The position numbers were made by a program, and so were the translations under genes. A stretch of DNA of 64,000 nt from Dudresnaya verticillata (lineage: Eukaryota), in contig OZ374562.1 of assembly GCA_977862235.1 (NCBI GenBank), forward strand, positions 806,001 to 870,000, read 5' to 3'. Below, piece after piece: positions 1 to 51,796 of the stretch. The notes under the pieces are model-generated. The model was not told where the DNA came from. It ran no database searches and saw only the letters and a list, made by a program, of their open reading frames with translations. Each line of letters starts with the position of its first letter. Position 1 is the first letter of the stretch.

Positions 1-1
1 C

Positions 2-928
2 GTGTGTTTTCGAGACTCCGAATATCGCTTCGGACTTGGTCGCGCGTTGATATCGGATGTCACGCAACGTCAATACGTATGGGTACTTGCGGAACTTCGT
101 TCATGATGGTGGTTCGAAGTTGTTTCCGAGGAAGGCGGGTACCCGGATCTTTCGCTCTGATGCTCAGATCGTACGATGCCGTTCCCGAAGATGTTCGTGA
201 TTTCCATCGAGGCTGCGGATCGGAGGGAGCTCCAGTCGACTCGTCGCGATTTCCAGACGGGACAGTGGTCCCAAGTGGTCGGGCACGACTTGGGATCCGG
301 GGCCTGATTCGATTGGCGTCACAACCGACCCTCACGAGGGGGCGCGGTCCGCGAGTCGATTCCTTTTCGCATCCGAGTGCCGCGGTTCGTGCCATCGGAG
401 GCGAGATTTATCCTTGCCGCGTGTTCCCCGCTCCGTAGCTCCGATGTGTTCGCCACCGCTGACTCCGGGATCAGCGCTCGGCACCAGGGCCGTTGCTTTG
501 GCGCCGAGCGCTTCGGGTTCCTCGGCCGCGAGTCTCGAGATGCTCTGTCCCACGAATATTCGTACTCTCGACTCCGTGAGTAATGCGTGTAGCGAAACGG
601 GCATCTCCCCGATGGGACGTTTCGGCAAGTGCTGGAACACTTCGGCGGAAACTTCCTTCCCACAGCCACGGAGGTGAGTCGCCTTCGTAGGAAGCTTCGG
701 GATCGGGATGCGGAGATAGAGGACCTTCGTCATCGTATTCGGGACCTCGAGTTGAGCGGTAAGCGTAAGCGTCGGCGCGAAGATTACGGTTACCCGAGTT
801 ACGATGCTTCGCGTGGGTCTGGCTCCGGGGGCCCTTCGGGCTTCGGACCCAGCGGTGGCGACGGATCGATGGTCACCGTGGACAATCAGAGACATCGGAT
901 CCGTATGCGCCGAACTTTCTTCGAGTGA
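2..928 (+). pseudogene. 3' part of a degenerate antisense accessory ORF of E1
   Basis: Frame +2 start VCFRDSEYRFGLGRALISDVTQRQYVWVL aligns ungapped by eye with TEWVANVAYAWLWEVYDTFRMYHL of the A/B antisense protein; 629-928 gives a coiled-coil/basic segment (EVSRLRRKLRDRDAEIEDLRHRIRDLELSGKRKRRR). Confidence 0.45.
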
Positions 929-2345
929 CTCGTGACGAAAATGGAAACGATCCTCGTAACAACCGGCCTTAAGAATAATCTAATCCGTATGGTGTGGTAC
1001 GTAGTGGTAGCGCCGTGGCTTCTTCTTTTAGCTTCATAGCTACTTAGTTTCTCGTTTTGTTATCGGGCTCCTTGTTATTGGAGCTCACGGTGGAGGGGTC
1101 TCGGTCTCGTTGTATCGTCTCGAGGAAAACGTTTCTCTTTCTCGACCCTTCTCTTGCCTCGTAGCAGTAGTCACAAAGTTGTTAACATTTTATCTTTGGC
1201 ATAGTAGCTTCTCTTTATCAGGCTTCATGCTCAAGTGTGCGAATTGAGACTTCTTCGTAGAGCGGCTTCGTTTTTCGTGATGCGTGTGGCGTTGATTAAG
1301 AATAAAATTACGCGTGTTTCCTTCGAGGCGTCGAGTCATCGAGACTTCGTAATTCTGCGTGCACGGCCCTCTCCTCAAGACGAAGGCGTCCGCGGCGGTG
1401 TGATTCGTGTGATACGTATGTCCGGGCAGCCCGCAGCGCTGCGGAGGGGTCTCAAAGTCTTCGGGGAGCAAGTCGCGTGAGCTCGCTGGCTTTTGAATTC
1501 GAGTTGCGGCGGATGCGCACGGGCGCGGAAGGAACGTATAGTAACGCGATATCGAGCACCGAGGCATGAGAGAGGAGTGCGCGAGTCGAACTAGTGAGAA
1601 ATCCGTGGCATTTTGCGAAGGCGCGTCGTGCGTCTAAAAAGGGAGGACTCTGTGGCTCCGGCAAGGGAGTGAGGAGGCGCGTGCGGTGCTCCGAGGCAGG
1701 CGATCGAGCGATGTTGGCGTGATGCGTGGGTTGCGACTGCGGAGTGCGTCTTGCGGGTGGCATCGGCCTCGATCTATTACGTACGGCGCGTATGACAAGT
1801 TAAGTATGGTGCACAGTGTCCGTTCGTCGCGGTGTCAGCCCTGTGATTCGAGTTCCGCAGTGCAACCATGTGCGCGTACGAGCCGGCGGCGGATATCGCG
1901 AAGCTTGTTGGGTCGACCACCACACTGATGGTCGATACCGCACGCTTTCGTGACCAGCAACTTAGCGGTGGCATCGTGGCGAACGAATTCGGTGACGCAG
2001 AGAGGACTTCGTGTCGCCTCCGAGCGCTTCGTTGTCGTGCGTCGCGTGCAACCGAAATTGCGGAGCTGCACTAGCGTGAGGTGCGGGGTGACGGGCGTCT
2101 GCTTTGAGGCAACCTTGTGCATCGGGGCAGTTGCAGTGTGCGACGAAGGCGCGTTGAGAAATACGGAGAGGGGTATCGCGAAGTGGTGCCATGAGGGGCG
2201 CGTAGCGGCACTGTGCAAACGTATGCTCCGGGGCAATCGGGATGAGTACGTTAGCAGTCAACACGTGGTGCAAGAACGTAGTGGGACTCCGGGGCCGTTG
2301 TTGTGATGAACGTCTTGTGCCGCGCAACTCGAGTGGGCGTAGGAG

Positions 2346-5300
2346 TCATTCGTGCTTCGGGTTGCTGATCACTAAGTCGGAGCTACGGAACCACTCGGGG
2401 TCCCACTCGGAGAGCCATTCGTGGGCACGTAGCGCGGGATCACGAGGGTCCGCTTGTCTTCGAAGCCTTGGTAAGTAGCGCGAAACGAGTTCTTCGGGCA
2501 CGTGCGTACGAGGTTCCCACGTAGGCCTCGAGCAGAAGTACCATTTGATGCGAAACAATAATCTTCCATCGTCTTCGGTTGCGCGATCGAGGATGCGATC
2601 GACAATGTATTCGGGGCCTGCGGTGCCCTTCTCCGCAATATCTTTGGGTCTCATTATGGACGGTCGGGAATCCGATGGCGGGCGCGTAGATACAGCGGTC
2701 CGCGAAGACACGTTCAACGAGGCCCTTACGATCGATCACGAGGGTGCGCGTATCGTTCAAGAGGACCTTATGTGGCCCCTCCGCAGGGGATTTCAACTTC
2801 GGAAGTATAGTTTTCCCATCGTGGGCATCAAGGAACACGTAGTCTCCGGGTTTCACGCGACTCTTCGTGCTTCGGAAGCGCTTATCGAAATCGCGTTTAT
2901 AGCGGTTTTGCACGCGCTGTAACGAAGTTCGTGCGGAGGTGATTGCGACGTCGAGTCGCTGAATGAAATCGTTGCGAATTTCCTCCGTGGGTTTCTGTCG
3001 GTGCTTCCGGGAGCGATCCTTGACTGTGAATTCGGGCGGCTGTCGCGATAAAACGAGATTGAACGGAGTTGTCTTCGTAGACCGATGAATGTGGCAATTG
3101 TACGAATACGTTAGCGCATATACCTAGCGGTCCCAATCTTTTTGATGGTCGTTCACGTAGTTGCGAAGCATCGCGGGATAGTCCGTTTATATCGTTCGGG
3201 TTTTCCATTCTTTTGCGGATGATACGCGGAGGTGAACACGTTCGATAACCCGAGTAGTCGGCACACGCCCTGAAAGAACTTTGAAGTAAATTGTTTTCCG
3301 TTATCAGAGAGCACCGAGGCTAGCGGTCAGTACTTGAAGATCCAAACTTCGCAAAACGCAGCTGCGACGTGATACGCGGTTGTGACTCGTAGTGTGGCCA
3401 CCTGGGTTAACTTCGTAAATTGATCCGTAATCGCGAGTATGAACGTGCGTCCGGATTTCGTTCGTGGCAACGGGCCTAAGATGTCAGTCGCGACCAATTA
3501 GAGGGGGCGCGTAGCGGGGAAGAGATTCAATCGGTGAAGGTTCCTTCGTAAACGAATTTGATTTCTCGCGCTTGCAATTTCGAACCGTAGATGCGATAAC
3601 GGCAGCCGTGTAAGGCCAGTAATACGGTTTACGAAGTGAGTAGAACATGCGATTCTGCCCCGGGTGGCCTGTGAGTAACGAATGATGCGCTAGCGTAAGT
3701 ACCCGGGCTCGGAGCGTTTCGGGCAATACGATTTGCGTTAACTTCGGAATTGTCGGATGCGTTCGTCGCAAGAGACCGTCTCCATCCTCGTAAAAGATAC
3801 TATCCTTCGTTTTCGATTGGCGTGCTTGCACCGTTTGGCAGAACGAATAAATACGTTGTCCCTAGAGGATTTCGGATACGGTAATCGGGGCGGGTAGGTC
3901 TACGGGTTTGACATCGGTTAGACAACGCGGTTTCTCGTTAGGGTCGATTCGATAAAGGTCAAACGGATCATTGTCATCGATATCGTCCCATAAATCGCAG
4001 TCATCGTAAACATCGGTTTGTCCTTCGTATTCATCCGGTAGTGCTTCATCTTGTGCGTGGGCGCAGCCTTCGTGGCACGCATGAGGGTGGGTTTCGGAAT
4101 CTTTCGGGACCTCCATGGGTCGTTGCGTAGTATCGCCTCGAACTACTGTTTTTTCGAGCGTCGTCGTCCGTGTGGAGTCGTGGTGAATCGAAGTGACCTT
4201 CGATTGACGTTTGCGAGATCGCGTAGTGATGCGAACCGGCTTTCTTTCGTTTTCGATAGTTTTCGTGATGTCGTTTCGGAAACGTTCTTCGTGATTTGCC
4301 GCGTTTTGATCCGAGTCAAACGCAGGCACTTCGTCATCGATTTCGGGTTGTTCGCGATGCGGAAGGAGCAACCTCGAGAGGGCATCGGGAATCTGGTGGA
4401 CGCGACCGGGGCGATACACGATTTCGAAGTTGAATTCGGCTCATCGCAGCCTCCATCGCGTGAGTCGCCCGGACGAATCGGTGAGATAAAGAAGCCATCG
4501 TAGCGCGTCGTGGTCCGTACGCACGATGAACCGGGTCCCTTCGATTTACGGACGTAGCGAAGTAACCGCCCATACGACTTCGTAGCATTCGCGCTCGGTT
4601 GCGGAGTAGTTCTTCTCGGCACCGTTTAACGAATAAGACCAGTATCCCACGGGTTGAAATTCTTCGTGATCTTGCTCCTGTAGCAACGAGCACCCGTGTT
4701 GATACGTAGACGCGTCCGTATCGATGATGTAACGTTTCCCTAGTTTCGGTAGCCGGAGTACCGGCGGTGACACGAGCTTCCGTTTGAGCTTCTCGAATGC
4801 TGTAACCTGATCCTCCGTGGGATTCTCGTAGTCCGGATCCGCGTCCTCTCGTGCCATGTCCGTCAACGGTCGCGCAATTTTCGCGACGTTTTTCAAGAAT
4901 TTTCGGTATACGTTACACGCGCCGAGGAATGAACGGACTTGGGTGCGTGCATTCGGGAACTTCGCGCATCGGAATGCCTCGCAGCTCTTCTCGGCCATAC
5001 TCAGCTTCCCCGGGGAAATTAAGTGTCCGAGATAATCGACTCGTTTTTGGAAGAGGAAGCACTTCTTCATCTTGAGCGAAACCCCGGCGTTACGAAGTAG
5101 CGTGAGGACTTGATGGATGATGCGCGATGTGTTCACGAAGATTCGCGGAGAAAACGATCACGTCATCGAGGTAAACGAGGCAGTACTGCTAACGGACTTC
5201 GGACAGAATGATATCGAGTGCACGCTGAAACGTAGCGGGCTCGTTTTTCAAACCGAAGGGCATACGAAGATAACGATAAATTCCGGGAAACGAAGCGAAC

Positions 5301-6690
5301 GTAGTTTTGTCGCGGTCTTCCGGGGCAGCCGAAATCTGCCAATACCCGCTGTTACAATCTAATGTCGAAAAACCCGAAGCCTCTCCGAGTGAATCGATAC
5401 AATCTTCCATCCGGGGAAGCGGGTACGCGTCCGAGAGTGTTTTCGTATTGAGTCTTCGGTAATCCACGCAAAAACGAAGTGTTCCGTCTTTCTTCGGTGC
5501 CAGTACTACGGGAGACGCACACTCGAGGTAGCTGGTTCGACTACTCCGGCTTTGAGCATACTGTCGATTTCGTTACGGACGATTTCTCGTATTGCGGGCC
5601 CTTCACGGTAGGGCATCGAACTAATAGGCTGAGCTCCGAGTTGTAGATCGATACGGTGCTCCGTGGCTTTGATCGTTCCGAGGTCTCCGTTCCACATCGA
5701 TTCGTGCTTTCGTAGCATCTCGACGACCTCGTTTCGCTTAGTTTCGTCGGGTATATTCGAAAGGTCTCCACGTTCTTCCCAATCGCGGGAACTCGAATTG
5801 GCTTCGTCAGCCACGTTCACGGCGCCTTTCTTGAGCGGTTTTTCCTTCCTGGATACGGATTCTTCGGGTGACCTCGAGTCGTCGTGCTCGCGTAGCGTAG
5901 AAATGTTGAGCACCTTGGCAAACGAATCCGCGACTTCGCTATCGGGTGTCAAAATCGCGAGCGGGTTACGAGCTGCGTATCCGATGACGTTTCCCTTCGG
6001 TAGGACTCGAGGCTTATCCGTGAAGTTCGCCATGAACACCGAACACTCACGATTCGGACTGAAATAGTGTATCCCGTTCTTTAACCGTACGCCGTGTCGG
6101 TGCTGTAACGAAGGTTTCGATTCGATGTGAATTAGTCCGGGTGCCTCCGAAGTCACGCTGAATAGCTTCTGCGAATAACTCGGGATTGTGACTCGGCGGT
6201 TCAAACGAATGGGGCGGGTCTCTCAGTCCCAATTTTGCAACGCGCGTTGGTGTCACTTGATAGCGTTTTCCCGAATTTCTGTTTCGGATTTCTCGAATTA
6301 ATAGCTGGCGGAGCCGATCCAGCGATTGATAATCGGAATCGTGCTTCCACACTTCATGATGAGCCTCCGTGGGCTGAGCTCGATGCCTCGTAAATGCGCG
6401 TCCATCCACGAAGTTCGAAGGAGAACGTCGACTGCGAGTTTTTGCTTAACCAAGAAGGGTACGCGGTAACGAACGTTCCCGAGGCGGCCTGTCAGGTAAA
6501 CGATATCATCGAGTTGCAACAAGGTGCGATCAGCAGACGCGAGCCTCGGAGCTGATTCCATCGTGGACGCGTTCGCTTCCCGACCGATGGGTAACGCAGT
6601 CCGGGCTATTAGATTGTAACCGGAACACATATCGAAAGCAATCGTATGCGGCGTCATTACGGAGGCATCGAGGACCACGAATACGGTCAT
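2346..6690 (-). pseudogene. pol: E1 pol pseudogene (protease, RT, RNase H, integrase, chromodomain)
   Basis: PR-like FDMCSGYNLI (6298-6690); DYRRLN..YPLPR, MPFGLKN and YLDD (~5162-5173); RNase H IIDTDAS; integrase HHSLLTGHPG and SDNGKQFTS; chromodomain EYIVDRILD..FRIKW..TWEP (2346-2717). Confidence 0.93.
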
Positions 6691-6940
6691 GAGGAAGATC
6701 TACGATGTCATCAAGCAAACGTATTACTTAATGGAAACTGCAGGTTCGCTCTTCGGAATCGGTCTCTTCTTCAAATTTTTTCTGACGAAGCGGATTTCGA
6801 GAGGAATCGACGTTCCGTTCGGTCTCGTCGTCGCGTAGCGCGCTTCCCTCGCATCGCAGCGGATTTAGGAATCGTAACTCGCGGAGTGTCTCGGGGAACG
6901 GAATTAGACGAAGTACGTGGCAAAACGGGCGTCTTCGCCT

Positions 6941-9381
6941 TTACTCGTTTTCCGAACTCGAACCAGAATTCGAATTACGAGGATCCGTGTCCAAAGGAGT
7001 GGTTGATTGATCGCCTCTTCCGATTTTGGCGGAGTCATCGTAAGCCTCCGAGGGCAAGTTCGGGCGACTCGACTCAATCGCGTCAACGTTTTCACGGACT
7101 GCGAGAACCGGTTGGCGGCTTGGAGCCTGCCCGTGTCTCGCATTGCGGAGGACGGTCGGCGGTCCTCGATGCGCGAAGCTTATTCGACGCTGGGCTCGGT
7201 CCCGCGGGTAGCACGTATCGACATGACGAAGGTCTCGGTTTGCGCGATTGTCACGCGATCCTCGCGAGTCCAGTCCACGGTGACCTCGATTGTCAACGGA
7301 CGCGAACGAATTTCCTCTCGTGGTACCGCGATTCACGAAGGTGTTACGCGTATACGGTCTTGTCTCGAGTTGATAGATATAGTTCTGATACACGGAGTAG
7401 GGTTGTTGCTCCTTCGTGAGATACGGACACTAATACATTAAATGACCGATATCGTGGCAGAACCAACACGGCCACGCATCCTGGTTCGTCGGGATCATCG
7501 AACGCGCCATCTCGATTTGCCCCGGGTCATCGGCGGCACACGCGCGGGCACGAAACGCTCGATGCGACTCGTGAGATCCAACGTATCGTACACGGAGACC
7601 GTTGTCGAAGTAGTCGGTGTAGCGGCCGCGGAACAGGGTCCCGAACGAATCATCATCACGGCCATTTTCGGGTCTTCGTTCATCGGGTACTCGAATTCAC
7701 TCCCGGGAGTATCGCATCGTGCGTCCAGGCGCTTGATGACTCTTTCGGTACGTAGCAGACGCTTGTTTCTTCGAATCACGAGACTGTTGGGCCGCGGTGT
7801 GACGTTTTTCGCGAGCTCCGAATGTCTTGCCTTCGGCTTGCGCTGTCCGTTGTACGCTCATGAAGTTCTTTTGCTCGGACAATGATAAAAGGCGAACCTG
7901 GTCGGCTACGATAGGATACGTAGTAGTTAGTAGTCCACGAATAAATTGGTTCGTTAACGAAGAGTCATCGTAGACACCGGAGCAGACATCTGCGTAGCCT
8001 TGTAGACGAGTCGTTAACTCCATCTCGGTTTCTTCGGACTTCTGCTTCGCGGTAATCACGCGATCGTGTGCGTCAGCGATTAAGTCTTCCATGATAAATA
8101 GTTGTAGCAATACGTTCATGAGAGCGGACCAGCAAACCGGGTTGCCAGTATTAACGCCTCCGAAGGCATAGTGCTGATACACCTGGAACGCGGTCTCGTC
8201 GAGGAATCACGAAATCGTTCGAACTGCTGCTCCTTCGGTGAGCCCGACTCCGTTCAGCGCTTGTCGAATATCACGAAGAAATGCGAGAACCTTAATCGGA
8301 TCGCGTCCCGTAAACTTCTCGAGCCTCGGCATCATCGAACGCATGCGCGAAACGGTTTTCAACGTGTTACCTCAGAATACTTCGTGTTGGTTATCCCGAG
8401 GTGACGAATGCGTGAGTCGATACGATCGATAGCTTACGGCCCGCGCAAATTCGGGAATGAGCGTCGGTATCGGTTCGACGCCCGGCTCGAGCGGCCCCCA
8501 ATGCCAGAATGATGATACCAGTCCCGCGAGCGATAACGGTTGTTCGATTATGGGTCCTCCGGGGGACATCGGTGGTTGAAGTGAATTTCGGAATACTGCG
8601 GGGTTGATACGGGGTTGTCGGAGGCATTGGTTGCCTGATGCGATGAGGGGCGCGGGGACTGATTCGGATACGTGTTTTTCGGTAACGCAGATTTGGCAGC
8701 CGGGCCTTGCACGGGTTGAACTCGCGGCGAATTGCGGGGGTCAGGACGGGTATCGGGACGATCTTCGCGATTTAGAGTCTTTTCCTTCGGTAACGCGGCG
8801 GACACGATGTCACGAATAGCGTTCAACCGCTCCTTCGTAAACGCGTGCGAGCTGCGAACGGGAATCGAGTGACTCTCATTGCCCACGGGGGCGGTTGCGT
8901 TGCGCTCAAGCACGAAGAAGCGGCTGCTGACTTCCGAGACGAGATCCCGGAGACTCTCGAGCGAGTCTTCGATCCTACGGGCCTTGCCAGCACGGAAATT
9001 GTCGAACTCTGCGTGAACTCGATTATGTGTGTTGCGAATTGAAAGCTGCGTGACACGGTACGCAGTGGACAGCGCGTCGATGACCTCTTCGTAGAGTAAA
9101 CGTAGCTCAGCACTGGAGATTTCATTCATCGAGAAGAGTCGATCGACGGTATCCGAGGGAACGATTTCCAACGGAGTGTACGTATACGAAAGGCCGGACT
9201 GGCTACCGTGAGCCTGCGAACGCGAGTCTCTGAGAAGATCGGGTACCGTTCTACGTGAAGCGCGGGTACGAGAAAACGGTTCTCGGTCACTCGCGTTCGA
9301 GTCGAAATACGGGAGCTCCGGAATCGGTACGTCATCGGGTTTCGGTACCGGCGAATCGGGACCACTCGAAGCGTGAGACAT
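6941..9381 (-). pseudogene. gag: E1 gag pseudogene
   Basis: Fragmented ORFs 8548-9381, 7697-8182 (AKQKSEETEMELTTRL, gag-like) and 6941-7393 ending SENE*, located between PBS and protease. Confidence 0.75.
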
Positions 9382-9433
9382 CGTGTCTCGGATAGAAAGG
9401 AATTACGAATAAATGCGAAACTTCGGAACCACG

Positions 9434-9451
9434 TTCTAGGTCGGGAGACCA
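9434..9451 (-). promoter_or_regulatory. Primer binding site of E1 (tRNA-Tyr-like)
   Basis: TGGTCTCCCGACCTAGAA 1 nt after the LTR end; identical to the PBS of A and B. Confidence 0.9.
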
Positions 9452-9452
9452 G

Positions 9453-10292
9453 TGTGATATAATGAAATCCACGGTGACGCGGGGGAGTCTCGCACTGCAA
9501 GGAATGGCCTCGGAGCCTAACTTGTGGCCTCGAAGCCTGACGGAGAAAGGAAAGGGGTGGTAGCGTGGTAGAGCGGAGCGACCAACACGAAGGACCACGG
9601 TGTCAACGTATTCGTGCGCGGAAGGGAGAACTCGAGCGATCGATCACCGGGGATGACTCAGGTGCGCGGGCTATCGAAAGCGAGGCTCGACCGTATCCGC
9701 GGTCACGAAGACGAAGACACCGAACTCGAAGAAATAGGCGTTTACCGGAGATTCCGAGGTCCGGGAGCTAGTCGCTTACCGGAAGTCCTCGGAGGTTGTG
9801 CCAGACGACTGTCTAAGCAATACTACGTGAGCACGAATATACGTCAACGCGGGAGACGGTTCGTACTCGAATGATTCGTAACGGCCCCGGTGCCAACGAA
9901 CGGTCGTCTCACGTATGGTGGCGGTTACGAAGTGCGCCAGCGATGCATACGGAGGTGCACGCGCGTAGTGGGCCTCGGTGCCGCTAAGCGCAGGAAACAA
10001 CGGGAAGATCACGAAGGCGTCAGCGATTTCGTATCGCGTGCGTTCTGTAATGCGAATGCCATCGTGGCGCGCGCGATCACGAAGTCAGCTCGGAATTCGT
10101 CCGGAGGCGTCAGCTATTTCGTATCGCGTGCGCACTGTAATGCGAATGCCATTGTGGCGCGCGCACAGTATGCGCACTGCAACACGTTTTCCATCGTGGT
10201 GTGCGCGTTCACGGAGTCGTTTCGAAATTCGTATTTCTCGATTACTTTCACGTAGACCACGGAGTTGTTCTGCGCACAACGTATATACCACA
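9453..10292 (-). repeat. 5' LTR of E1 (~840 bp)
   Basis: Termini TGTGATATA...TATACCACA (imperfect inverted repeat, TG..CA), adjacent to PBS; contains a 90-bp tandem duplication starting at 10015 and 10105. Confidence 0.8.
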
Positions 10293-10585
10293 CTCTGCTG
10301 CGATTGAATCCATGTACGAGGTCAACTGGGTCTTCCAACTCGGGTCCGAGTTCTTCTCAGCGATTCTACGTACGTAGATCTCGCGGTCCTTCTTGAAAGT
10401 CCCTGTCCACAGTCACGAAGTCGGCGGTCGTTATCCCTATCAGCCGCGGAGCCTCAACGGTCGCAACGATCGTCTGATGTACCTTGCTTCTGGTACCAGT
10501 TCCAGCACCTTGTCGACTCCTTGTATTCATCGTGAACACGAATAACCTCTTCAGCCAAACGGTAATCCCCGGGGTGAGTAATTAC

Positions 10586-11083
10586 TGTAACGCAGTCCGG
10601 ATAAAGCGAGCCACTCGCGTACGTGGTGGTGGGTAAAAGAGAGAGAAAAGGGAAAAGCAGGAAGGCGAGGATGGAGACTAGGTCACTGCGGGTTGCTGGG
10701 AGTCCCCGTCGTCTGTGCTGACGCCCGCGGGCTACCGTCATTAGGTAAAAAAGCAGAATGTGAGCTGCTCTGCTCAAATCGTACGACCCACGCTATTTAG
10801 TGGACTACACGATCGCAGCCTCCGCCCTGGATCGGGCAGATCCAGTCTGGCTCAGCTTGTCGCGGATTGCCGCCGTCGCGTCTGTCGGAGACGACGGTCG
10901 GAGAGTCGTATTGTACAATACAGTCCTGTATCCAGGCTGGGTGCCCTGCAGACATCCAATCAGATAGAGAGGCATGTCCAGGCACTGCTGTGCTGCAGAG
11001 AGGAGGTACCGTACAGTGTACAATGTACAGGGTTGCCTATGCTGGCAGGGTCCGAGTACAGGTAGTACTGGGTGGTGCTTACA
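10586..11083 (-). repeat. Candidate older LTR followed by a gag-like fragment (10293-10585) into which E1 inserted
   Basis: Ends TGTAACGCA...TGCTTACA; purine-rich tract like the other LTRs; no partner, TSD or tRNA PBS seen. Confidence 0.3.
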
Positions 11084-11552
11084 GGAATTACCAGATTTCC
11101 AAAGTGAGAAAATGGTCTCATTCGGAAATCGACAGCACCACCTAGATCGCCAGATACAGCTGTAACACCTGTACGCTCAGCAGCGCGCTTTTGCGCTGCT
11201 CCAAGCCCCCATTCCCGCCAAAGCTACAATTCGGCGTTATCTCTCCAGGGCCTGGTGTTAAGAATTGACAAAAAAGTCACATCGTTCGCGGGAAGCCGGT
11301 GATGAGTGAAACGCCGATACAACAGCGCGGTCTTGCTGTATACAACAGCTCCAACCAGGCACCGAGAGCAGTACCACACAATTGCCTTCGTCTTCTCCCT
11401 GCTCTCCTTCTTTTCCTCTAAGATGAACACGAACGACATTAATCACCTTTCTACTCCGGCTCCATCTGACAGTGCAGTTCTGCTTCCATCTTCAACTTTC
11501 AACACAGGTTGTCCGGTTGGCGTGGCACGCCTGCACTGCAGGCATCCGCAAC

Positions 11553-12295
11553 GATGACGCTGGACATCACACCCATACTATCGCGTAGGGCCGAAGCTTC
11601 TGTTGACACCCACGCTCCTATTCCGAAATTAATCCAGAAGGTGAGGAAGAGTGGAACGCGAACCGGCTCCCCTAACTACAACAGTGAGGACCTTTCCGCA
11701 GCTCTCGACGTCAGGGCGTTGAGCCCCTTGGAAGCAACGAGTGGGACCTCGTGTCAAGTCGGTACAACGTATGGGCCGAACGCAATGAACGCCCTCATCG
11801 TCATCAAGACTCCCTGAAAACCAAGTTCGATAAATTGTGCATAACTAAGAAGAAGACCGGAGACCCTTCCTGCCCACCCAGTGTCCGCCGCACGAAACGA
11901 CTCGCTCGTGGTATTATCGCAAGATGTACTGCAGACTCGTTGGGTGATGGCGATGCTGACGACACAGAATCTGATGGAACAAAGGTACTGTCTGGGGGGC
12001 TGTGGTATCTTCCAATGAAATGCGGGACGCTGTTGTTGGAGAGCGCACGGATAAGCGCTCGCCGGGTAAAACTGGGATAAAGCGTTCTGCGGTGCACGAC
12101 CAGATCGGAATCATGGTGAACCACATCGGCGATATGACTGATGCGCTTCGCAGCAGGCCCAGTGCATCTCATGTCGTTACCAGAGATGACATACTGACCA
12201 TAGTAAAGTTTGAGATGGAACCAACGCAGATTATGATGGCCGAGATGCATCATTGGCTGAAGGAGATGCGTGAGAACCGCGACCACAGGGAGTAA
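11553..12295 (+). pseudogene. Harbinger-associated Myb/SANT-like DNA-binding protein, frameshifted
   Basis: GSPNYNSEDL ... EWDLVSSRYNVWAERNERPHRHQDSLKTKFDKLCITKKKTGDPSCPPSVRR across frames 11509-11817, 11751-12080 and 12002-12295. Confidence 0.65.
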
Positions 12296-12429
12296 CGCTG
12301 CTTGGTACTTTAGAACTTTACTCGTTCCCCTGTGTGTAGTGTGCGGAGTTCGTGGACGGGAAAGTGAAACCCAACGTCTTTATGTTAGCGGTGTTCAGTT
12401 ATATTGAGTTCCGTTTGCATACGTTGTTC

Positions 12430-12956
12430 TTATCTGGTTTCCACCGACTGTTCTTTCCTTCGGTTTAGCAGGCGCACGCATATAGCAATCAATCGATGCC
12501 GCTTTCTAGAGTCTGCGGGAAGTGGAACCTTAAGACGCGCGAACGGCCCCTTGATTGCTCTAATACCCCATTCAGCAGTCTGTCGCTCACTTGGCATAAC
12601 CCTTTGAATGATGGTATCTATAGCCGCTAGCTCAACAGACACCGGTACATCATGTACCTCATTTGATTTCCGCCCGCGTAAAACTTTTCCGTTGGCAGTG
12701 CGTGTATTATTGACGAATGCCGGATCTCCCAATTAGTCATTCCTACAGGTGTCATCTCACCACCAAGCTTCGGAAAGTACAAACCGGATACTACGGTAAG
12801 CATAGTATCATGCCAACTACCCTGGAAGTTGATAGCGGCGTGATTATTTCCCCCTTGAAGTTAAACATAAAGCAATTTGTCACTTCGACGGACTGTGTAT
12901 ACCCCTCAAAGTAAGCGTTCTGCAAGTCCGTGTCTTGAAAGTCAGCACAAGGAAAC
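12430..12956 (-). pseudogene. PIF/Harbinger DDE transposase, C-terminal half
   Basis: QNAYFEGY..NCFMFNFKGEII; frameshifted AINFQGSWHD; GDPAF; ERQTAEWGIRAIKGPFARL (DDE_Tnp_4-type motifs). Confidence 0.8.
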
Positions 12957-13623
12957 TGTATTGCAACACCCAAACACGGGGATTGTCCCAACCGTGTTTG
13001 ACGCGGTCTCCCGCGGTTAGGTAGCAGGCGCCACGCGGTGAGGCGGGCGCCTGTGTGGTGGTAGAGCAGCCGAGACACGTGGTGTGCCCTGGGGATAGTG
13101 TGACTGGGGTCGACTGTAAACCCCCCGATCCACCTGAAGTGCCGTACTGCACGTAAGCGTAGCGACGGCGATACACGCCTGTAGGATGGCGCGGAAGAGG
13201 GACTCAGAACAGGGTACGTAGCCCGAATTGCGAGCGGTGGTGACACCGGAAGAAAAGTCGGGGGTATCCTCAGGTTCAGAGACCAACTTGGCGCTTTACT
13301 GTGAGAGGGTTTCACCCCGTATACTAAGTATCCCCCGCGGGAGGTGCGCGCGCGTGTCTGGCGCTGTGCGTCAGACACCTGGCATGTGCGCGCACCGCGA
13401 GCTCACTAAAATATCGCGCAAAAATAATTAGCGTAGAAATACTACTACCGCACTGTAAATCAGTGCAAAATAACGGTGCGCATTGCTGGCGCGCACCCGA
13501 TCGCGGACTCCCTCGGATATTGCTGGCGCGTGTGCGCGTGTAAACGTGGATGATTGCGCACACGTGTGCGCGTGTATGGCAGCGGGCGTCTGCGGGAAAA
13601 CAGGGTCCGGGCGCTGCACCACA
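12957..13623 (-). repeat. 3' LTR of C
   Basis: TGTATTGCA...TGCACCACA; direct repeat of 32518-33185; adjacent polypurine tract GAGGGGGGGCTA on the minus strand. Confidence 0.92.
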
Positions 13624-13899
13624 TAGCCCCCCCTCAAGAGCGGACCCCGCAGCTGATCTCCCTACGCCGTTCCACGGTGGCCTCACCGAAATGCCGGAGT
13701 CACCTCAAGTTTTCCCTGCGATCACGTCCCCGCCGTCTGTGACGCGACTCCCTTGTTGCGCGGCTCCCCGCGTTCCAAACCTTCACCTGCGCCAAACCAG
13801 GGTCTTCTGCACCTAAAAATCTCTCCGGCTCATCCCGCTTTTTGTGCTGACTTGCCAGCCTTGTGCGGCTCCCGGCTTACTTCCTCACCCCCGAGTGGG

Positions 13900-14723
13900 C
13901 ACACGTTTATCCCCGCACTGCCTTGCTGGCTCCGAAAATTGGCTGCCGCGGTTCCCGCGTTTTTCAAAACGTGACCTGCGCCGCGCCCGGCGCCTGTCGC
14001 AGCGAACTTCCTCTGGGCCACCCCTGTTCTAGGGCCTAAGCGCACTCGTCGCGCGGATATCTGCTCGGTTCCCCGCATCCGATTGCGTCGGAGTTTGCCT
14101 CTGCGCCAAGAACTTGGCTGGTTGTTCAACATCGCGGTAAACCGCTTCCATCTCTACCACTGCCACTCGCAGGTCCACCGCGCCTCATTGATATAAGTAA
14201 CCCGCCGCGATCGGCATCGGTACCGTGCGAAATCATAGGGCGTGCCTGGCACCTCTTCAGAGACATAGAGTCCACGCTTTTGTTCCCACTTCACAATTAG
14301 TAGTACCTTCGGCCAGCACGGCCAGCGGTAAACAATCCCGGGGGTGTGTGCTCATTTTTTGGTTTCCAACTGTAAGCCACCGTAAGCATTTCTGGTGGAC
14401 CCACGGGTCCCCCTTTTGGACTGAACGGGGCGTTCCTGAGTGGACCCTGGACCGGGTGGGCTATTGGCTGCCCCGCGTGGGCCTCAGCGCGCGCAGCGTA
14501 GATATTCCCGATGGCGATCTTGCTGGCAACTCCCGAGTCCTCTCCCACGGGCAGAGTCCAGGGCCCCGAAACCTCTGAAGCGGGTGTAAACCACAAGGAT
14601 GTATCCGTAGCCAGCCAAAACGGAGAAACCTCCGGTCAAGACCCCGATGTTGGACATCTTATGAGTGAAAGACAGCGAGAGTTGCTCCGAGAGTGTGATA
14701 GTCGGCATGTTTGCCGTACTTGA
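13900..14723 (+). pseudogene. Degenerate antisense accessory ORF of C
   Basis: Across frameshifts: AVPAFFKT..ATPVLG and SEFA/LRQELGWLFNIAVNRFHLYH, resembling KVPPVWR..VTYLG and TEWVANVAYAWLWEVYDTFRMYH; followed by Trp-rich ORF 14225-14578; boundaries approximate. Confidence 0.45.
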
Positions 14724-15000: not shown

Positions 15001-18000
15001 TCATCCGACCATCGCCTTGAGAAGCGAACTGGGTGTACCCAGATTTTCCCTTCGGCAGGAGCGCAGAACCTGACTGCGGGGTAAGTGCTCGATGGGTTCG
15101 AGTGCATTTTGCCAGCTGGGGTATCCGAACCACTTAACTTCAAAGAGGAGACTCTCGTTAACATATTTGTGGCTCGCCACTTTGTCTATAACAAATTTCG
15201 TCCGCGGGGTCCCCGCGGTAGGTAGAATGGCGGGAGGAGGAACTATTCCTTCGCGAGGATGACCCTCGGTATGGTACGACGTGCGCGTGGGTATCCCCAC
15301 TATGCGGCTGTCAAACGTCACGCGCCGTGGTGCGGTGGTGCCATCGGGCGTGTCATACGGGGGTGACCCCGGAATTGTTGCTCGTAGGCGTGCGCTGCGG
15401 GGCGTGGGCAAGAGGATGGGTTCGTCGGCAGGTCTGCCCTCGGCTAGCCGCTGCAGCCGCAACTCGAGTTTCCGCGTCCAGCGAGCTGTGGCTATCATCG
15501 GATTTATTTCCGCTTTCTTTGCAGTGCCTGCTGTTGGTGGCTTGGGCGCGACGAGTCGGGGCATCGTCGCTCGACGAAGTGTCTCGGGGGTTACTGGGGT
15601 CGACCTCGCGTGGATGCCAAAGGTCACCATGGACGATGTTGAGGCGCATAGCTTCGTTGGGACCCTTACACCCTGCCCGTGATTATCCACACCTCTAGCG
15701 ATATCACCGTGGACATCCACGCCCCCCAGCCCTCGCGGTCCAGGTCGTCTTGATAGACGGTCTGGATAGGGGCCCGGTTGGTGACCTAAATCTCCCTCGT
15801 TGCCAATTGGCATGACGTTAACGTCCCATGGGTGGTGACGCCGGTTGTTGAGGGCGCGTTTGTCCCGTGGGCGCCCACTTCTTCCCTTTCATGTCGGCCG
15901 CGTGGTGTACCCAGGGTGAACCCCGTTTCTGGCGTATAATCGATGCGGATCAGCTCCAACTCGTGGTCTCCCACGTTACCTGTCCGCAGTTGACCGAGTT
16001 TTAGTTCCCGCGTCGTTGACGGCGCCTTTGGTTGCGGCTTGGTGGCTTCGCGGTAGACCGCTTCGATAACTTGACTTTCCTCCCCTGTGAGTGGGCTTTG
16101 CCGCCTGCAGCTGGCGTGGTATGCTGCTTGGCGGCGTGGTAGCCAAGGTCGCTCTGGGTGATGTCCCCGGTTTGGCTTGTATCGCGGGTGGGGCGTTCCC
16201 CGAAGACGTCGGAGTCGGCTCCGCGGAGCGCTTAATTTGGCCACCCTCAAGTGGAGATGAGCGTGGTTTAGTCAGAACGGCTTTTACCGGCGGGGACCCC
16301 GCATGGGAGCTCCGCCGTCGAAATTCGATAAGACCGCTGCGTAGGCGAGGGCTCCGCCTCGTAGTTGCCTTGCGCCGTAGGTCGGTTCCCTATCGGCAGT
16401 GGTGGACTACTTGGCGCCGTCTCCGGCGCGGGAGATGCGGTAGTACGTAATCCAGACGGGATCCTAGTTATGACTCTCGCATACGGTTGGGCGTCACCAA
16501 TTCCAGATTCGCCCCGATGCGGCAGATCTGTCAATCCGCGCTCGAGTTTAATTGGCGCTGACTGCAGCGGTACACTTGGCGCTTGCACGGCGACTGTAGG
16601 ACTCGCTCCACTGTCTCCTGGCACAGGAAGTGCTTCCGCATCCGTTCCCTGCGGCCTTTCGTCATCGGTCGCGGCCGTGGGCTTGAGAGGAGGTGCTAAC
16701 ACCACCTGATCGCGGGCAGTCCGCTCCTGAGTGCCATTCCCCATGTCGAGAATGACGGTGTCGCCTTCGGCCTTCACGACCTGGTAAGGGTCCTCCCTAA
16801 CCGGTGTGAGTTTGTTTTTGGGGGCATCCCTTCCGTAGTACTCCTTCTTGACGAACACCTAAGAACTGTCGCTGATCACATCCGCGGGTATCCGCACTCT
16901 TGCATCAAAGCCGCGTTTGTATCGCGCCTGTGACTTGGTGAGTTCTTTTCCCGCGGTCTCCATCAACCCGCGTAGCCTTTCCTGCCACTCCTCGCGATAC
17001 TTCGCATTAGACGGGAAGCTTCCCAGCGAGGGCTCGGCCTCGATGTCTAATGGCGGCGGCGGGCGTGATAGAACGAGTTGATAGGGGGCTAGATTCGTCG
17101 CAGTGTGAACCTGCGTTTTGTAAGAGTACGTGAGCGCGTCACTGAACAAATCTTAATCACGCGGGTGGTCCGCGACGTAGTGCCGTAAGCTCGCTTGGAT
17201 AGTCCTATTGAATCTCTCGGCCTGCCCGTTGGTCTGGGGGTGATACGTAGTCGTAAACAGGTTCTTGACACCCAGTAGTCCACAGATAGCTCGAAACAGC
17301 TCGCAGTGAACTGCGGTCCATTTTCCGACAGTAATGTCTTCGGCATAGACAAAGACCCAATGGTTTACGAACGCTTTCGCGATCTCCATCGCAGATATCC
17401 TCTTGAGCGGTATAGTCCGCATGAGCTTCGAATAGCGGTCTACGATGGCCAGTAGGAATCGATTGCCGCGCTTGGACCGGATGAGTTCTCCAAGAAGGTC
17501 AATCGAAACCTGTTCAAACGGCGCTGTCGCCGGGAATAACCGTAGATACTTGGACACACGTCGTAGTTCGACTCGATTTCTCGCGCATGTGACGCAGTTC
17601 CAAACCATGGAGGGTAGCACAAACCGTGGAGAGCAGCACCTACCCCCCGTTAAGACGCGAACGCAAGTGAGTGTAGAACGCGGCTCCCAATTGGGCACGA
17701 AGTAGTTCTTCAGTAGATAACGGCCGAAGTAAGGCTTCGCCTTTTGTAGGGGGCGTTGTGACCAGTAACCCACGTCTGCGATTGCGCAGGAGGGTTGTAT
17801 TCAAAGCCACGCGTACTTCTTGCGAGGATCGTCCCCCGGCTTTACCGAATTCTTGGGCTGCCGGTAACGGTGTGTAGGACGGAGGGCGCTTCATCGGCCG
17901 TCGGGTTATCGGTACCCTTGTTCCGTGGTCGAGTTCGACTTCCTTAGTGCGAGGGTAGATGGCCTCGAGAAACCTGTCGCATAAATCGCAACCCAGGATA

Positions 18001-18341
18001 ACTGGGGCGACCAACCGTTCGCATACAATGAATTCGAGGTTAACGACGCGGGGACCGAGGCGGACAATGAGTTCGATTGTACTCAGCGTCAATATCGGCT
18101 TGTTGTTCTCGTCTGCGATCGTCTGTAGGGCCACGGAATTGATTTCGGAGTTCATGTCCGGTCGAAGTTCTGACTTCCGGATAAAGTTGGGTCCCGCGCC
18201 CGTGCCAAGGAAGCTCAACTTACGGGTGAGCAGGCCCATTCTTGCGCCGATCTCGGCGTATACCTTGAAGTTGCGCCTCACGAGCAGGCAGACTTCGTCG
18301 GTATCTCGATGCTGCCGCACCCTGTGCCATGTACGGCGCAA
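15001..18341 (-). pseudogene. pol: C pol remnant: protease fused to integrase and chromodomain, RT/RNase H missing
   Basis: FLGTGAGPNFI (PR); CVTCARNR, IDLLGEL..IVDRYSK, YHPQTNGQAERFN (INT); FVIDKV..FEVKWFGY (chromodomain). Confidence 0.9.
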
Positions 18342-19233: not shown

Positions 19234-19579
19234 AACACCGGTTTCCCGCGTTTCAGAATGTACTTTCAAAAACAGGCTGCAATAAAACCGTTCAAAAGTA
19301 CATGCGTTGGAAGGGGAGCGTCCCCTGAGCACGCTGGTGCAAACGGAGTAGAGCACTAAGTAGTAGTTCACGAGTTATGTTGGTTGGCGTGCTAACCCGG
19401 CAGTGAGTCTGAAATAATAAATTTTTGTGTAATTTCTGAGATTTTTATTTCAGATTTTAAGGTAACCTAGGCTACTTCCATGGGCCCCTCACCGCGCAGT
19501 ATACGCTGCCCCAACAGTGCAGAACTACTCGTCAGTTCAATGCCGCTCTCCCCATGACATGCAGAGTATTGCAGCACTG
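19234..19579 (+). repeat. Left TIR of D
   Basis: Reverse complement of 31820-32192 with scattered mismatches and small indels. Confidence 0.9.
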
Positions 19580-20260
19580 CCATGAATTCCCTTCCCGGAC
19601 TCACTCCGGTGCAACTTCGGGCATTCGTCAACCGGCAACTGCACGCTACCTCTCTAGTGCCATGCCCTCTCTGCTCTTCCCTAGGCTTCAGGACTTGCTA
19701 TGCGCAGTCGCACTCGCCCGCTACACTCTCCATCCTCACCGACACATCGGCTCGTTGTCCTCCGCTACAACCAAAAACCCCACCCAAGTATTGTAATCCC
19801 TGTTTCACCAACGTTACAGCATGTGCTGCATAGTGCGACGGCATTCATGTAGCGCTCTTCCCAGTGTATACCGTCCTCTCCGTCGACCTACTCCATGTAG
19901 TTTGGACTGGGCTCCGATACTGAATTTTGTCCCACATTGCAGTGAATTCGCCGTGGTCATATGTTAGACCTCGTTCCCCGCCCCGGACACCTCGTACTTC
20001 ACCCGTGCAGTTCCCTATACATGTAGCGAGCTGCAGCTCGCCAGACGCCCCGGTCAAAACCACAAACGCCCATTTCTAGCCGTGCACTTGAACCAACTTC
20101 GAAAGTGCACTCAAAGCCGTCTCCCGTAGTAGTCCACAACGCGATTCCTTACTTGGGCCCGTTCCCCTCTTCAAGCACCTCAGCATGATAAACATACACA
20201 ACCGCTCTCGTACTCACTTTATCTGTAACTAACACTCCTCAACTACCTTTACCCTAAACC

Positions 20261-21222
20261 TCAGTCCGCTGCAGACTCCGGGTCTTCTTCATCGACCTCC
20301 ACCGTCCACCACCCTAACAAAACCAGTATTCCCTCCAGCACCCCCTTCACCGCCTCCCCAACTGCGACAGCATCCGAAATCATGACCCGTGCCCGCCGCA
20401 CCAAGTCCAGACGAAGCCATATGGTGCCACTGGTATGACGCCTGGTTCGCACCCGAGCTTCTTCTAGCTCGGCGCGCAGTCTCCGCACCTCCAGCACCAA
20501 CGCTTCCGGTGCTTCCCCCCAACTCTCCATTTAAGTCGTCTCCACCAATCCTCAAACCGACACTGTACCACTCCCTTTTATAGACGGAACCGGGCACCAT
20601 TCTGGAGTTTAGTTGACCTCGTTTACACCAACTCTGCACATATTTTCCCTATTGCGACACCGTTGCAACGTCGGGAATCGTTAGCACGCAAACCGTTCTT
20701 GTTCCGTAGTTGTCATTCTTTTTGCGGACGCGGCGAATGCCAATCGATGGGAGTACCTGGTGGAGGAATGTTCACAATGTTCATCCTTGAGATTCTGCGC
20801 TTCTCTTCATGGCCTTTGAGAACTGCTGTCTCATTCTGTCGACGTTCTCGTGCTGACATGTTATCCATGTCTATAAGCAGAGGGTTGGGAGCCATCTCAC
20901 ACAGCTTCTGCATTCTTCTCTCCCTTGCATCCCTGAGGAAGTTACTCAATGCGAAATATTCCTCGCGCCCCGCCACATTGTATTGTCCTTCTTTCCCTAT
21001 TACATCCGTCATAAAACTATTGAAGACCGACCTGTCAAAGAGCTTGATGTCCAGAGTTTCTAGACCGATTATTTCCTTCCCTGCGCTGCTGAAGTATATC
21101 AATATACTCTTCAACCTTGCCACTCCGAACCGTTTCACGATGTCCTTCGCACACTCCCCGTCCTTGCACAAGTCGGATACATTCAGGGACTCCATTTTCT
21201 TGGCCCACTTCCACCACATCAA
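20261..21222 (-). pseudogene. Unknown cargo gene remnant(s) in D
   Basis: ORFs 20713-21222 (169 aa, globular-looking) and 20261-20530 (coiled-coil-like); no recognised domain. Confidence 0.35.
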
Positions 21223-23880: not shown

Positions 23881-24245
23881 GGCAATCTTTAGAGTGGTCC
23901 TGTGCCTCGCGAGAAACTGAAATATGAACTGCGTTGTGTTGCATATTTCCATGTCGTCTCATGCTCGAACATCGCGACACGCGCCCGTATCCTTGCTTGA
24001 CGGTAATGCCGCAGAGGACGACTCCCTGCGCACAGCGCAGGGAATTTGGACTTGCCAGAGCGTTTCTGCTTCACATGGGAGCCGGCTCTAAACCAGGCGC
24101 GGGGTCAGCAACGATAGCCTCGGCGCGAACAGGAAGAACTGGCGGCAGTGTGGATGGTGCGCGGCATGGTGCGCGAGGTGCACGCACAAATCTGGCGACG
24201 AGGGCCGGCAGGTGGCGGACTGTGTACGACCGAGCCCCGGGAGCC

Positions 24246-24587
24246 CCGGATAGGTTTTCACAGCACGGCCTTGCAGAAACGTAAAGACTAATATCACTAT
24301 TGACGAATAGATTTCCACGGCGCGCGAGATCAAATATCTGTTTAATAGGTATTTCTACACTGAATCTGGAAATACCTACATAGTTATTTTCCAAATCACT
24401 TTCACAAAACCTATTGTAATAGGTTTTGCTGTCGGCGCGTCAGAAATACCTTTATAGGTATTTGTAAGCACGCAACCAGAACATCTATTAGAAAGGTTTT
24501 TGCGTCGCCGGGTCGAGAAAACCTGAAAACTAATATCGATATTGCCGGATAGATCCCGGCGGCTCGCATTCTCAGAAACCTATCCGG
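24246..24587. repeat. AT-rich island of palindromic ATAGGT/ACCTAT motifs bounded by a 12-bp inverted repeat (MITE-like or binding-site array)
   Basis: CCGGATAGGTTT...AAACCTATCCGG; internal AAAACCTATTGTAATAGGTTTT and AAATACCTTTATAGGTATTT. Confidence 0.55.
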
Positions 24588-26865
24588 CCATCTCGGAATC
24601 ACACCCTCCCGTCGCTGCAGGTACGCGGCCGCGCGGTCAGTATGACACACATCAGAATAGCTGCAGCTGCGTCCCTGCCCAACCCCCCCTGCGCATCACA
24701 CCCACACCCCCAGCTGCCTGTGCCGCGCTGAGCAGACTGCAGTGGCAGCGCAGTGTCGACGTCCGCCTGGTGTGGTCGAGGTCTGCCGCGTCTGCTGCTG
24801 CGCTAAACGAGCGTAGGCGCGCGCAATACGCTCCCATCATCATCGCGACATACGCTCCCACAGCTGCCGCGCCCACGCCTCCGTCTTGCTTCCGTGTTGC
24901 CTAATATGGAACCGATGTGTATGGGTACCTCTTAGTACAAGGCGGCACTACGAGTTCTTCGCAAGGACACATACATCGATGTAGTTCAGCTGGCCGAGAC
25001 TCATGAGGAGAGGGAGCGCTAACCCTTCAAGCTGGCTAAGGAAAAGGTTGCACGTCGGTGATCAAGGCTTCCCAGCACACCAAGCTTCCTCAAAACGATT
25101 TGGCCATATACCTCGGTCCAACTATGGGAGTGTCGATCCGCCGTAGAGTCTCGGCGATATGAGGCACGTAGCAAACCATGGAATGGGATGCTCGCACAGC
25201 TTACTCGTCAACTGCCCATGGAGGCACGCTCAAAACAGAATGCGGCAGCTGCGAAAACCGAGGAACAGGTATTTTCAGGCTGGGGTAAGCACTGCAATGA
25301 TGCTGCAAGAAAGGCACTAAGCTCACTACGCCGACCGAAGAAAAACGTCCCGAGTCCGCTGGTCGATCAGACTTGCAAGGCTCTGAGAGCGCTTCAGCTG
25401 AAGCGCTTAAGCGATTCTAGAATCGGGACCACCGACGATGAGCGGGGAAGAGTTTGGCATAGCTGCACCCCAAATCGTTGCTGCTCGAGTGCGGATTATT
25501 GAAAGAAATTTGTCTGGAGATGATCAGCGACATGTTCGATGGAAACGTCATTGGCATTGAATGCCGCAACAAACGAAGGAGTGACGACCGAGTCAACGTC
25601 TAGACATGGTGGTGAGCTTTTCCGAGGTTTGTTTCGGAAACGGCGTTAACAAGTGTGTAAGCCTATCCCTTTTATCCTGTATTGTGTTATTCGAGTTCAA
25701 TTCGGCAGTGTAAACACGTCATCCACATGTTTTCTGGGTTCACCGCGTTGTTGATGTCAACTTCGCAGTGCCTGCCAGGCACCCAGTGGGTGGCACGCAT
25801 ATCATTGCTTGTTTCTGCGGACAAGCAAGTGATCCCTGTAACATTATGCTTGTTTTCCTATCGCATGTACGTATCGCACGTACGGATAGGACAATCATGA
25901 TTTGTCGTTTTGGAGAGCTTGCTCCTTGAACGAAGATCAGTGGGAGGACTGGCAGGAAATAGAAGCTTTCCTCGGCGGCTGTCGCAATGAGAACGAGGTT
26001 GCGAAAAGGTGCAATCTGGGGGATGTGCACAGTACAAACAGATTTCCTTGTTCAAAACGAAGGTGCACGCAGCAACAATCTAAGCAAAAATACCGAACCC
26101 AACCTTTTGGGGTGTCCTCTCAATAGAAGATATGTTCTCTACCTGTGTTAATCGAAGAAGTTCGGTATGCGCTGCATGGCCCCCGCCCGGTGATGGCAAG
26201 GAAGTGACCGTGCCTACCCAGTAGTCAGAGGTTCTCATGGACTCACATGGGTGTGATTACGGCAGAGGCCCATATGCAGCGGTTTTGTGTCGACAAGTAT
26301 GTCATGGCGTTTGAGAAGGTTTTTGATGCGTTCTGCGAACAGGCATTTGATGGGAGACTCTCCCAACTCTGAGTTCGAGAACTATATATATCCTCTTGGA
26401 TTCACAGCAGCCAGGAAATGCACCTTGAAGGTGCATTTCCTGACTGCTTTTGCGAGAAAGGACAGACTGAGAGTCACTGCCCGAACGAGCACGTTGTAAA
26501 ACACAAGTTGTCCCTATTGAATACAATAAAGATTGTCAAGGTGGTAGTTGAGAAAGTGTTGCATCGTGCTACACGACAATCTACACGACAATATGTGTGT
26601 AGCCAACCAGAAGTGTGCCGGCACTATCTACGCATCATTAAAGTTTTATGTGTCTTGATACAACAACCGTCTATCTCACAAACTGCGAGAAGAGACACGC
26701 CACGCTCCCAATACGCGCTCGCCTGCGGCCGCCAACCGCAAATGCAACAGCGGCGCAATGCGCAGGCTGACCGACCTGAGCCATCTCGATAGCTCACTTG
26801 GATATGAAATGTGCAAGACTCCAAATGACCCACCAGAAGCGTAAACAGTTTTATGGTCTATCGTG

Positions 26866-31540: not shown

Positions 31541-31819
31541 AGAAGAAAATAGGCGTGCCACTGCTAAACTCAGAATTGAGTTTAGAGGTTAGCTCTGACT
31601 GCGCTCTAGTACGGTTTCCGGTTCCCAAAAACGTGCTCCAGTGTGGGTAGGGCTTTAGCCGTCAGCCCCGGTTCCGGTCCCATGCAACTCCAAGCGCTTG
31701 CTCTACAAACGTGCAAGCTAACGTACTTGAACCCCGCTCCTTCGCCGCGCAGGACGAGCGTTCATCGGGAGAATAATGCGCGCAGTCTGGCAGAAGCGAG
31801 GCCGGGAAGAAATAAATTT

Positions 31820-32192
31820 CAGTGTTGCAGTACTCTGAACGTGCAGTGTGACCTGTATCGAACTAACGAGTTGTTCTGCACGTTGCGGCAGCGTATGCTG
31901 TGCGACTGCAGCTTATACTGCGCGGTGAGGCGCCCATGGAAGTAGCCTAGGTTACCTCAAAATCCGAAAAAATATCAGAAATTACAGCAAAATTAATTAT
32001 TTCAGACTCGCTGCCGGGTTAGCACGCAAACCGACATAACTCGCGAACTACTGCTTAGGTTTCTATTACGTTTGCACTGGCTGTGCACTGGCGTGTTCAG
32101 GGGACGCTCCCCTTTCCAACGCATGTACTTTGGAAGCGTTTTATTTCAGTCTGCTTTTGAAAGTACATTCTAAAACGCGGGAAACCTGTGTT
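31820..32192 (-). repeat. Right TIR of D
   Basis: Ends ...GGGAAACCTGTGTT; inverted match to 19234-19579. Confidence 0.9.
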
Positions 32193-32514: not shown

Positions 32515-32517
32515 CTT

Positions 32518-36518: not shown

Positions 36519-36520
36519 TC

Positions 36521-51770: not shown

Positions 51771-51796
51771 ATATTCTCGTCGTTGACGTCATACCG

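Follow-up and report, generated by a model that had tools for sequence, protein, structure and literature searches.

Several plant Ty3/gypsy retrotransposons carry an additional gene in antisense orientation, the aORF-3R; examples are Grande gene23, RIRE2, Retand TRP28/Transposase_28 (PF04195) and PvRetro13 (PMC7264820; PMC11963269). The function of these genes is given as unknown and a nuclear or DNA-binding role is proposed (PMC7264820; PMC11963269), while the origin and function of antisense extra genes in LTR retrotransposons is treated as a recognised open question (PMC7264820). The antisense genes of the elements A and B described here, and of the family to which they belong, resemble the plant aORF-3R as far as the latter is described there: they are located antisense between pol and the 3' LTR, are conserved across lineages and come with a long 3' region (PMC7264820; PMC11963269). 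Outside plants, PMC7264820 mentions Boty of Botrytis/Sclerotinia, an LTR element whose antisense ORF occupies the corresponding place, and we liken it to the A/B family by position alone. However, Retand belongs to a non-chromovirus lineage, whereas A/B-family elements possess a chromodomain integrase, and Transposase_28 of Retand (PF04195) matched none of 106 A/B-family members at E ≤ 0.01.

With Ty3/gypsy elements (Metaviridae) in general, the A/B-family elements share Gag, the order protease-RT-RNase H-integrase-chromodomain, TG...CA LTRs, a primer-binding site (PBS) and a polypurine tract; they differ from the usual arrangement by an added antisense gene of 1.9-3 kb, and their 3' region reaches up to 4.3 kb. 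Another comparison concerns the role of the gene. VANDAL anti-silencing proteins and the accessory genes of red-algal Plavaka are transposon-borne as well and act, or are proposed to act, on the chromatin of their own element (10.1101/2025.02.11.637652). However, both are DNA transposons and are compared with the A/B family by role, without a link in sequence or fold. The antisense genes of the A/B family are members of the known antisense aORF class, and the family itself is unnamed. No description of it was found in the literature covered (Repbase and most subscription journals lay outside this coverage), and passages of PMC6338049 and PMC6431247 contain nothing on it.

Retrotransposons of the window

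The window, i.e. the whole stretch of 64,000 nucleotides that was analysed, consists of nested LTR retrotransposons, among which four Ty3/gypsy elements with chromodomain integrases were mapped by Pfam and tblastn, designated E1, C, A and B. The order RT-RNase H-integrase with a C-terminal chromodomain was found in these elements, C lacking RT and RNase H, and among solved structures the best relative of their pol is Ty3 Gag-Pol (E 1e-93). A, B, C and E1 were also identified by their LTRs, PBS and polypurine tract, the 3' LTR of E1 being located outside the window. The PBS TGGTCYCCCGACCTAG is common to all four (9436-9451 in E1, 32499-32514 in C, 36521-36536 in A and 62788-62803 in B) and presumably resembles the 3' end of tRNA-Tyr.

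Element A (35683-49075, + strand) is bounded by LTRs at 35683-36518 and 48240-49075 (98.7% identical), has the 5-bp target-site duplication TACAT, and its gag-pol with chromodomain ends at 43913. Element B (50282-63708, - strand) has LTRs at 50282-51185 and 62806-63708 (97.3% identical) and a gag-pol with chromodomain ending at 55401, and no target-site duplication was found for it. The gap between A and B is spanned by a 613-codon ORF (48851-50692, +) with a domain of the endonuclease-reverse transcriptase type (PF14529, E 2.5e-16), and probably belongs to a LINE that served as insertion target for the elements. E1 (2440-9451, - strand) comprises, besides its PBS, gag and a decayed pol that ends in a chromodomain near 2440.

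Element C is a deletion derivative. Its pol remnant (15001-18341, -) consists of protease followed by integrase and chromodomain. A polypurine tract at ~13625-13635 precedes the 3' LTR (12957-13623, -), which is 92% identical to the LTR at 32518-33185; the likely 5' LTR and PBS of C lie at 32499-33185 (-). A target-site duplication was looked for and none was found. Only 1.36 kb separate the pol stop of C from its polypurine tract, while A and B possess 4.2-4.3 kb of 3' region. Inside C, inverted repeats of ~400 bp (79% identical, 19234-19605 and 31795-32192) bracket 13 kb that hold a DUF7869 ORF (27220-27996, -) and a decayed WD40-like gene (~30990-31500); this insert is likely a large DNA transposon with long terminal repeats. 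Strongly decayed pol-like fragments were also observed at 24151-25359 (-) and 20764-20967 (-). Rfam gave no hit.

The antisense gene of A and B and its family

The antisense gene of A is located at 45427-47781 (-), with its first ATG at 47781 and an in-frame stop at 47629-47631, and that of B at 51797-54093 (+), with its first ATG at 51797 and a frame break before ~51898; both window copies are broken near the gene start. Proteins of the family consist of a core of ~370 residues, to which a small two-helix motif is joined in some members and a coiled coil plus basic tail in others, and the product of A comprises the core, a short stretch resembling the two-helix motif and a low-complexity tail. 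Just upstream of the B gene a tandem repeat was observed (51451-51689, 100 bp x 2.4 copies); tandem arrays are reported in Retand 3' regions.

Omega values of 0.098 between A and B and 0.14 between two outside copies (L001 and L002) show that purifying selection acts on the core. AlphaFold2, supplied with 106 sequences, models it as a mostly helical domain of 368 residues (pLDDT 93.8, pTM 0.92; the folded core of B corresponds to 51895-52998). Pfam revealed no family shared among the 106 members, only two single-member matches (E ~0.004-0.005), and PDB sequences gave no match (best E 0.24). Foldseek with the whole core returned nothing at E ≤ 0.001 in PDB or BFVD, and in a wide VIA search with the whole core 13 of 48,161 chains reached Z ≥ 2 (best Z 2.5). 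The ESM Atlas gave no usable family match (best 0.79), a search of plasmids gave nothing, and a peptide-pattern search of viral and prokaryotic contigs yielded no family members. The core fold is a confident prediction without a match among solved structures, and such an absent match does not prove a new fold.

The tails are variable apart from the two-helix motif of ~35 residues, which is present in 37 of 74. Folded at pLDDT 85, it is predicted to form two helices with a long loop and in this respect is similar to the SAP/helix-extended-helix motif. Two SAP domains are found among tied weak matches to it (Z 4.0 with rmsd 3.6 over 45 aligned positions, and Z 3.8). However, the SAP rows tie with unrelated two-helix pieces and Pfam SAP did not match the motif, so that the resemblance is a lead only.

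According to the initial annotation, the gene does not stem from a one-off capture but belongs to an old family that runs through the clade, its core being conserved and its C-terminus variable. This view is borne out, though by sequences from outside the window and not by E1 and C. At E ≤ 0.001, the A/B core profile matches 457 protein clusters at 50% identity (150 of the 457 counted were listed). Among the members listed for 21 proteins a single one is named, and its name is 'hypothetical protein'. The gene is located antisense behind a chromo-integrase in five outside elements (L001, L002, L019, L020 and L027), and together with A and B the antisense ORF between pol and 3' LTR is conserved across seven elements. 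Position and orientation persist among main lineages that are 41-53% identical in pol. L001 and L002 carry intact gene copies, tail to tail with the chromo-integrase; further intact natural copies are those of L019 and L020.

A search with the primer-binding site led to 11 loci, 5 of them with gag or pol similarity, and in the genome bin behind these loci the profile detected three remote members (E 8e-16 to 2e-7) and later a fourth. In the gag-pol elements L019, L020 and L027 the gene follows pol in antisense orientation; these three form a remote subfamily, which lacks the YD-R motif and possesses a coiled coil and a basic C-terminus, a tail type also seen in E1. On L003 and L017 the gene is present and there is no pol on the contig. 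No long antisense ORF is found in the 2.1 kb visible of L013, whose pol is 82% identical to L008/L020, and L029 and L030, which are distant, likewise have none; L024-L026 and L028 stop too soon after pol to show presence or absence. Two bacterial MAGs, G001 (L007, L008, L010, L011, L013, L016-L030) and G002 (L005), contain eukaryotic Ty3/gypsy contigs, many of them in G001 and several intact; these contigs are host DNA binned as bacterial. The host is probably a red alga, as suggested by WD40-like genes among the repeats and by relatives that were binned with a bacterial genus associated with seaweed.

In an unrooted pol tree of 9 rows, with L001 left out as too short, C is placed with A and B; L002 joins next, followed by L008/L013, and E1 falls outside. 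Simple co-descent of the antisense gene with RT and integrase, for which a comparison of phylogenies had been suggested, is contradicted between A and B. Their dS is 0.013 in pol, 0.14 at the integrase C-terminus and 1.02 in the antisense core, and when 43570-48600 is compared with 50700-55700, a stretch of 57-87% identity, which starts at ~43570 and reaches as far as the first half of the LTR, replaces the 94-100% seen before it. Since pol is shared (dS 0.013) but the antisense gene is not (dS ~1.0), the 3' cassette was likely swapped between A and B, the recombinant likely resulting from one template switch near the integrase C-terminus. A single switch would account for the pattern, and consequently gene tree and pol tree need not agree.

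Candidate homologues in E1 and C

The initial annotation further proposed that E1 and C carry remote homologues of the A/B gene. In E1, the 3' part of a decayed antisense frame lies within the window (frame +2, 2-928, + strand; 5 stops in 308 codons), possibly a remote family member. It gives SEYRFGLGRALISDVTQRQYVWVL at 17-88 (+), a peptide like the TEW...RLW helix of the family. Its position and its orientation antisense to and downstream of the minus-strand chromodomain pol, together with a coiled-coil-like stretch (665-754, +) and the basic cluster KRKRRR (761-778, +), were found as described. In C, SEFA (14088-14099) is followed in another frame by LRQELGWLFNIAVNRFHLYH (14101-14160), so that the candidate spans 14088-14160 (+), and these peptides, too, lie downstream of a chromodomain pol on the minus strand and run antisense to it.

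Scored with a 24-column matrix of the TEW helix, E1 17-88 ranks first among the 117,856 24-mers of the window (11.6 bits, next 7.4), also with A and B left out; held-out members reach 11-43 bits (minimum to median, n = 98). As the TEW block was picked after E1 had been seen, the test was repeated, without A and B, for every block. E1 then took rank 3 of 121 regions for the 19 blocks from the helix onward and rank 8 of 121 for all 59 blocks, and its rank drops to 18-66 at block widths 18 and 30. Neither a collinear downstream block nor the conserved YD was found. Scored on sense codons only, the codon usage of the frame falls into the top 2% of 1,119 null stretches (p ~0.02).

Over the whole region the picture is a different one. 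Neither tblastn nor HMM searches with A/B alone, a three-sequence HMM, 155 single family proteins or a 107-sequence HMM matched E1. It ranks 211 of 226 windows by frameshift-aware Viterbi, 41-62 of 186 nulls are as good by Forward scoring, and 9-21 of 230 are as good when the C-terminal half of the core is scored in glocal mode. Pairwise scoring left E1 at background as well. The hhalign probability is 0.1%, with a preference for a different, incompatible register. E1 stayed unmatched by remote-subfamily and combined profiles, while the remote-subfamily profiles scored B at 15-27 bits. Typical members subjected to 20% random decay still score 29-53 bits in the median, compared to a null maximum of ~3, and since they are still detected at this level, E1 is not a typical member. 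Remote members lose their profile signal at 5-10% decay; at 5%, 20 of 40 trials brought the most remote one, cut like E1, under the null maximum.

Further comparisons concern the surroundings of the E1 frame, which ends 1.5 kb from the pol stop, as the gene of A does. Its coiled-coil and basic tail has only weak Pfam matches (E ≥ 0.03), mostly to coiled-coil families, and is of the same kind as the tails of L016-L018, without a significant sequence match. The frame found nothing in G001 or G002. A word-index search with it (lengths 169-541 only) was blank as well, which is weak evidence, as the same search for the family found 0 and then 1 homologue, far fewer than HMMER. The closest pol relatives of E1 are L024-L026 (48-63% identical over integrase pieces), which end 0.4-1.2 kb after pol, short of where the E1 frame ends. 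For the E1 stretch, window 1-2400, no sequencing run was listed.

Taken together, the claim for E1 is borderline: the best 24-mer and a coding-like frame speak for it, whereas whole-region scores at background, missing robustness to block width and missing downstream support speak against it. Judged from the sequence, we see an even chance that E1 holds a true remote homologue of the family. Somewhat less probable, though a serious candidate, is a real gene of an unrelated family in the same slot, whose helix resemblance would be due to chance. The coding-like frame that close, remote and combined profiles all leave unmatched would fit this explanation, as would the position of E1 outside the pol-tree clade that holds the included gene-bearing elements, and chance look-alikes do occur (31396-31458). 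However, the best 24-mer of the window for the TEW block falls precisely at E1 17-88 and on the expected strand.

The look-alike at 31396-31458 is an off-frame reading of the WD40-like gene; as it outscored both E1 and C on whole-region tests, by-eye matches of their quality arise by chance. Another candidate, at 24092-24199, lies on the same strand as an apparent further decayed pol and was likewise dismissed as a look-alike. By eye, MSERQRELLREC of C and TFRQVLEHFG of E1 resemble the tail motif, but the motif HMM, which gives no significant match even to A or B themselves, is too weak to judge.

For C the claim is not supported. The four profile and single-protein sets that left E1 unmatched (A/B alone, the three-sequence HMM, the 155 single proteins and the 107-sequence HMM) gave no match. 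C ranks 126 of 226 windows by frameshift-aware Viterbi; 154-163 of 186 null windows are as good by Forward scoring, and 70-107 of 230 nulls are so when glocal scoring is applied to the C-terminal core half. The register claimed scores ~1 bit, compared with at least 11 for all 98 held-out members, codon usage is not above background, and the candidate is at background in pairwise scoring and hhalign too, with remote-subfamily profiles changing nothing. It is indistinguishable from chance, and no profile test gave a significant match to the core. The initial annotation had itself named the lack of a significant profile hit as grounds for rejection, and such a lack was observed for C and, on whole-region scores, for E1. 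The integrase of C is 60% identical to that of B and the one of L002 54%, yet the gene of L002 is readily detected. Since C is closer to B than L002 is, retains only the short 3' region and is a deletion derivative, a family homologue in C is, from its sequence, improbable; likely the element has lost its antisense gene.

Even less probable is that E1 and C both hold true remote homologues. The first rank among 117,856 24-mers, the coding-like frame and the 1.5-kb spacing as in A would agree with this, as would the shared PBS, the existence of a remote subfamily whose proteins end in a coiled coil and a basic tail, and the loss of signal at 5-10% decay. However, C is at background everywhere despite an integrase nearer to B (60%) than that of L002 (54%), has 1.36 kb of 3' region versus 4.2-4.3 kb in A and B and lacks RT, and E1 has neither the conserved YD nor a downstream block, with an incompatible hhalign register.

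Possible role of the protein

The reading we favour, at roughly balanced probability, is that A and B carry a conserved accessory gene whose product would act as a nuclear regulator of the chromatin or transcription of its own element. A promoter located in the 3' LTR or close to it would drive antisense transcription, and the protein would enter the nucleus through its basic clusters, bind nucleic acid or chromatin, and counteract silencing of its own element or regulate it. Antisense transcription, nuclear import and binding are proposed here by analogy with Grande gene23, Retand TRP28 and VANDAL. The size of the family, the conserved place and orientation of the gene, purifying selection, the confident model, the basic clusters (29 of 71 long members, loose pattern) and the scarcity of strongly hydrophobic 19-mers (>1.8 in only 3 of 71) argue for such a regulator. 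Against it stand the weak SAP evidence, the broken state of both window copies, L013 without a long antisense ORF and the neutral charge of the core. DNA binders often have a net positive charge, and the core, with a mean of 0.001 per residue, has none.

The main rival, which we consider doubtful, is that the core represents an enzyme of an undescribed fold, for example one modifying nucleic acid or chromatin. A large, well-folded domain with near-invariant polar residues at several columns (R 75-90%, D 78-91%, E 77-95%) would suit an enzyme. However, neither Pfam, PDB sequences nor fold comparison gave a match to any enzyme, W, P, G and L occupy many of the most conserved positions, and the YD-R motif is missing from the remote subfamily. 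The env position of the gene, from pol to the 3' LTR, would suit an env-like or movement protein serving cell-to-cell spread, but such a protein is highly improbable, since the gene is antisense in all seven elements where sense orientation is expected, hydrophobic 19-mers are confined to the 3 of 71 long members and BFVD gave no match.

Returning to the putative regulator, gene, spacer and U3 of the LTR likely move as one cassette through template switching during reverse transcription. However, a single template switch explains the geometry of this cassette without any functional link between protein and U3. Rather unlikely in its full extent, one might speculate that a PBS-defined, probably red-algal clade of chromodomain Ty3/gypsy elements has long kept a self-specific anti-silencing antisense protein of a new fold, swapped together with U3, and that E1 would represent a third, remoter subfamily.

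The specific claim on E1 and C contributes little beyond the A/B family. This family, in turn, offers hundreds of diverse members, intact natural copies, a confident model without match and a natural swap, and consequently structure solution, localisation and binding tests are directly feasible. With it, antisense extra genes are extended to chromodomain-bearing elements, most likely outside land plants.
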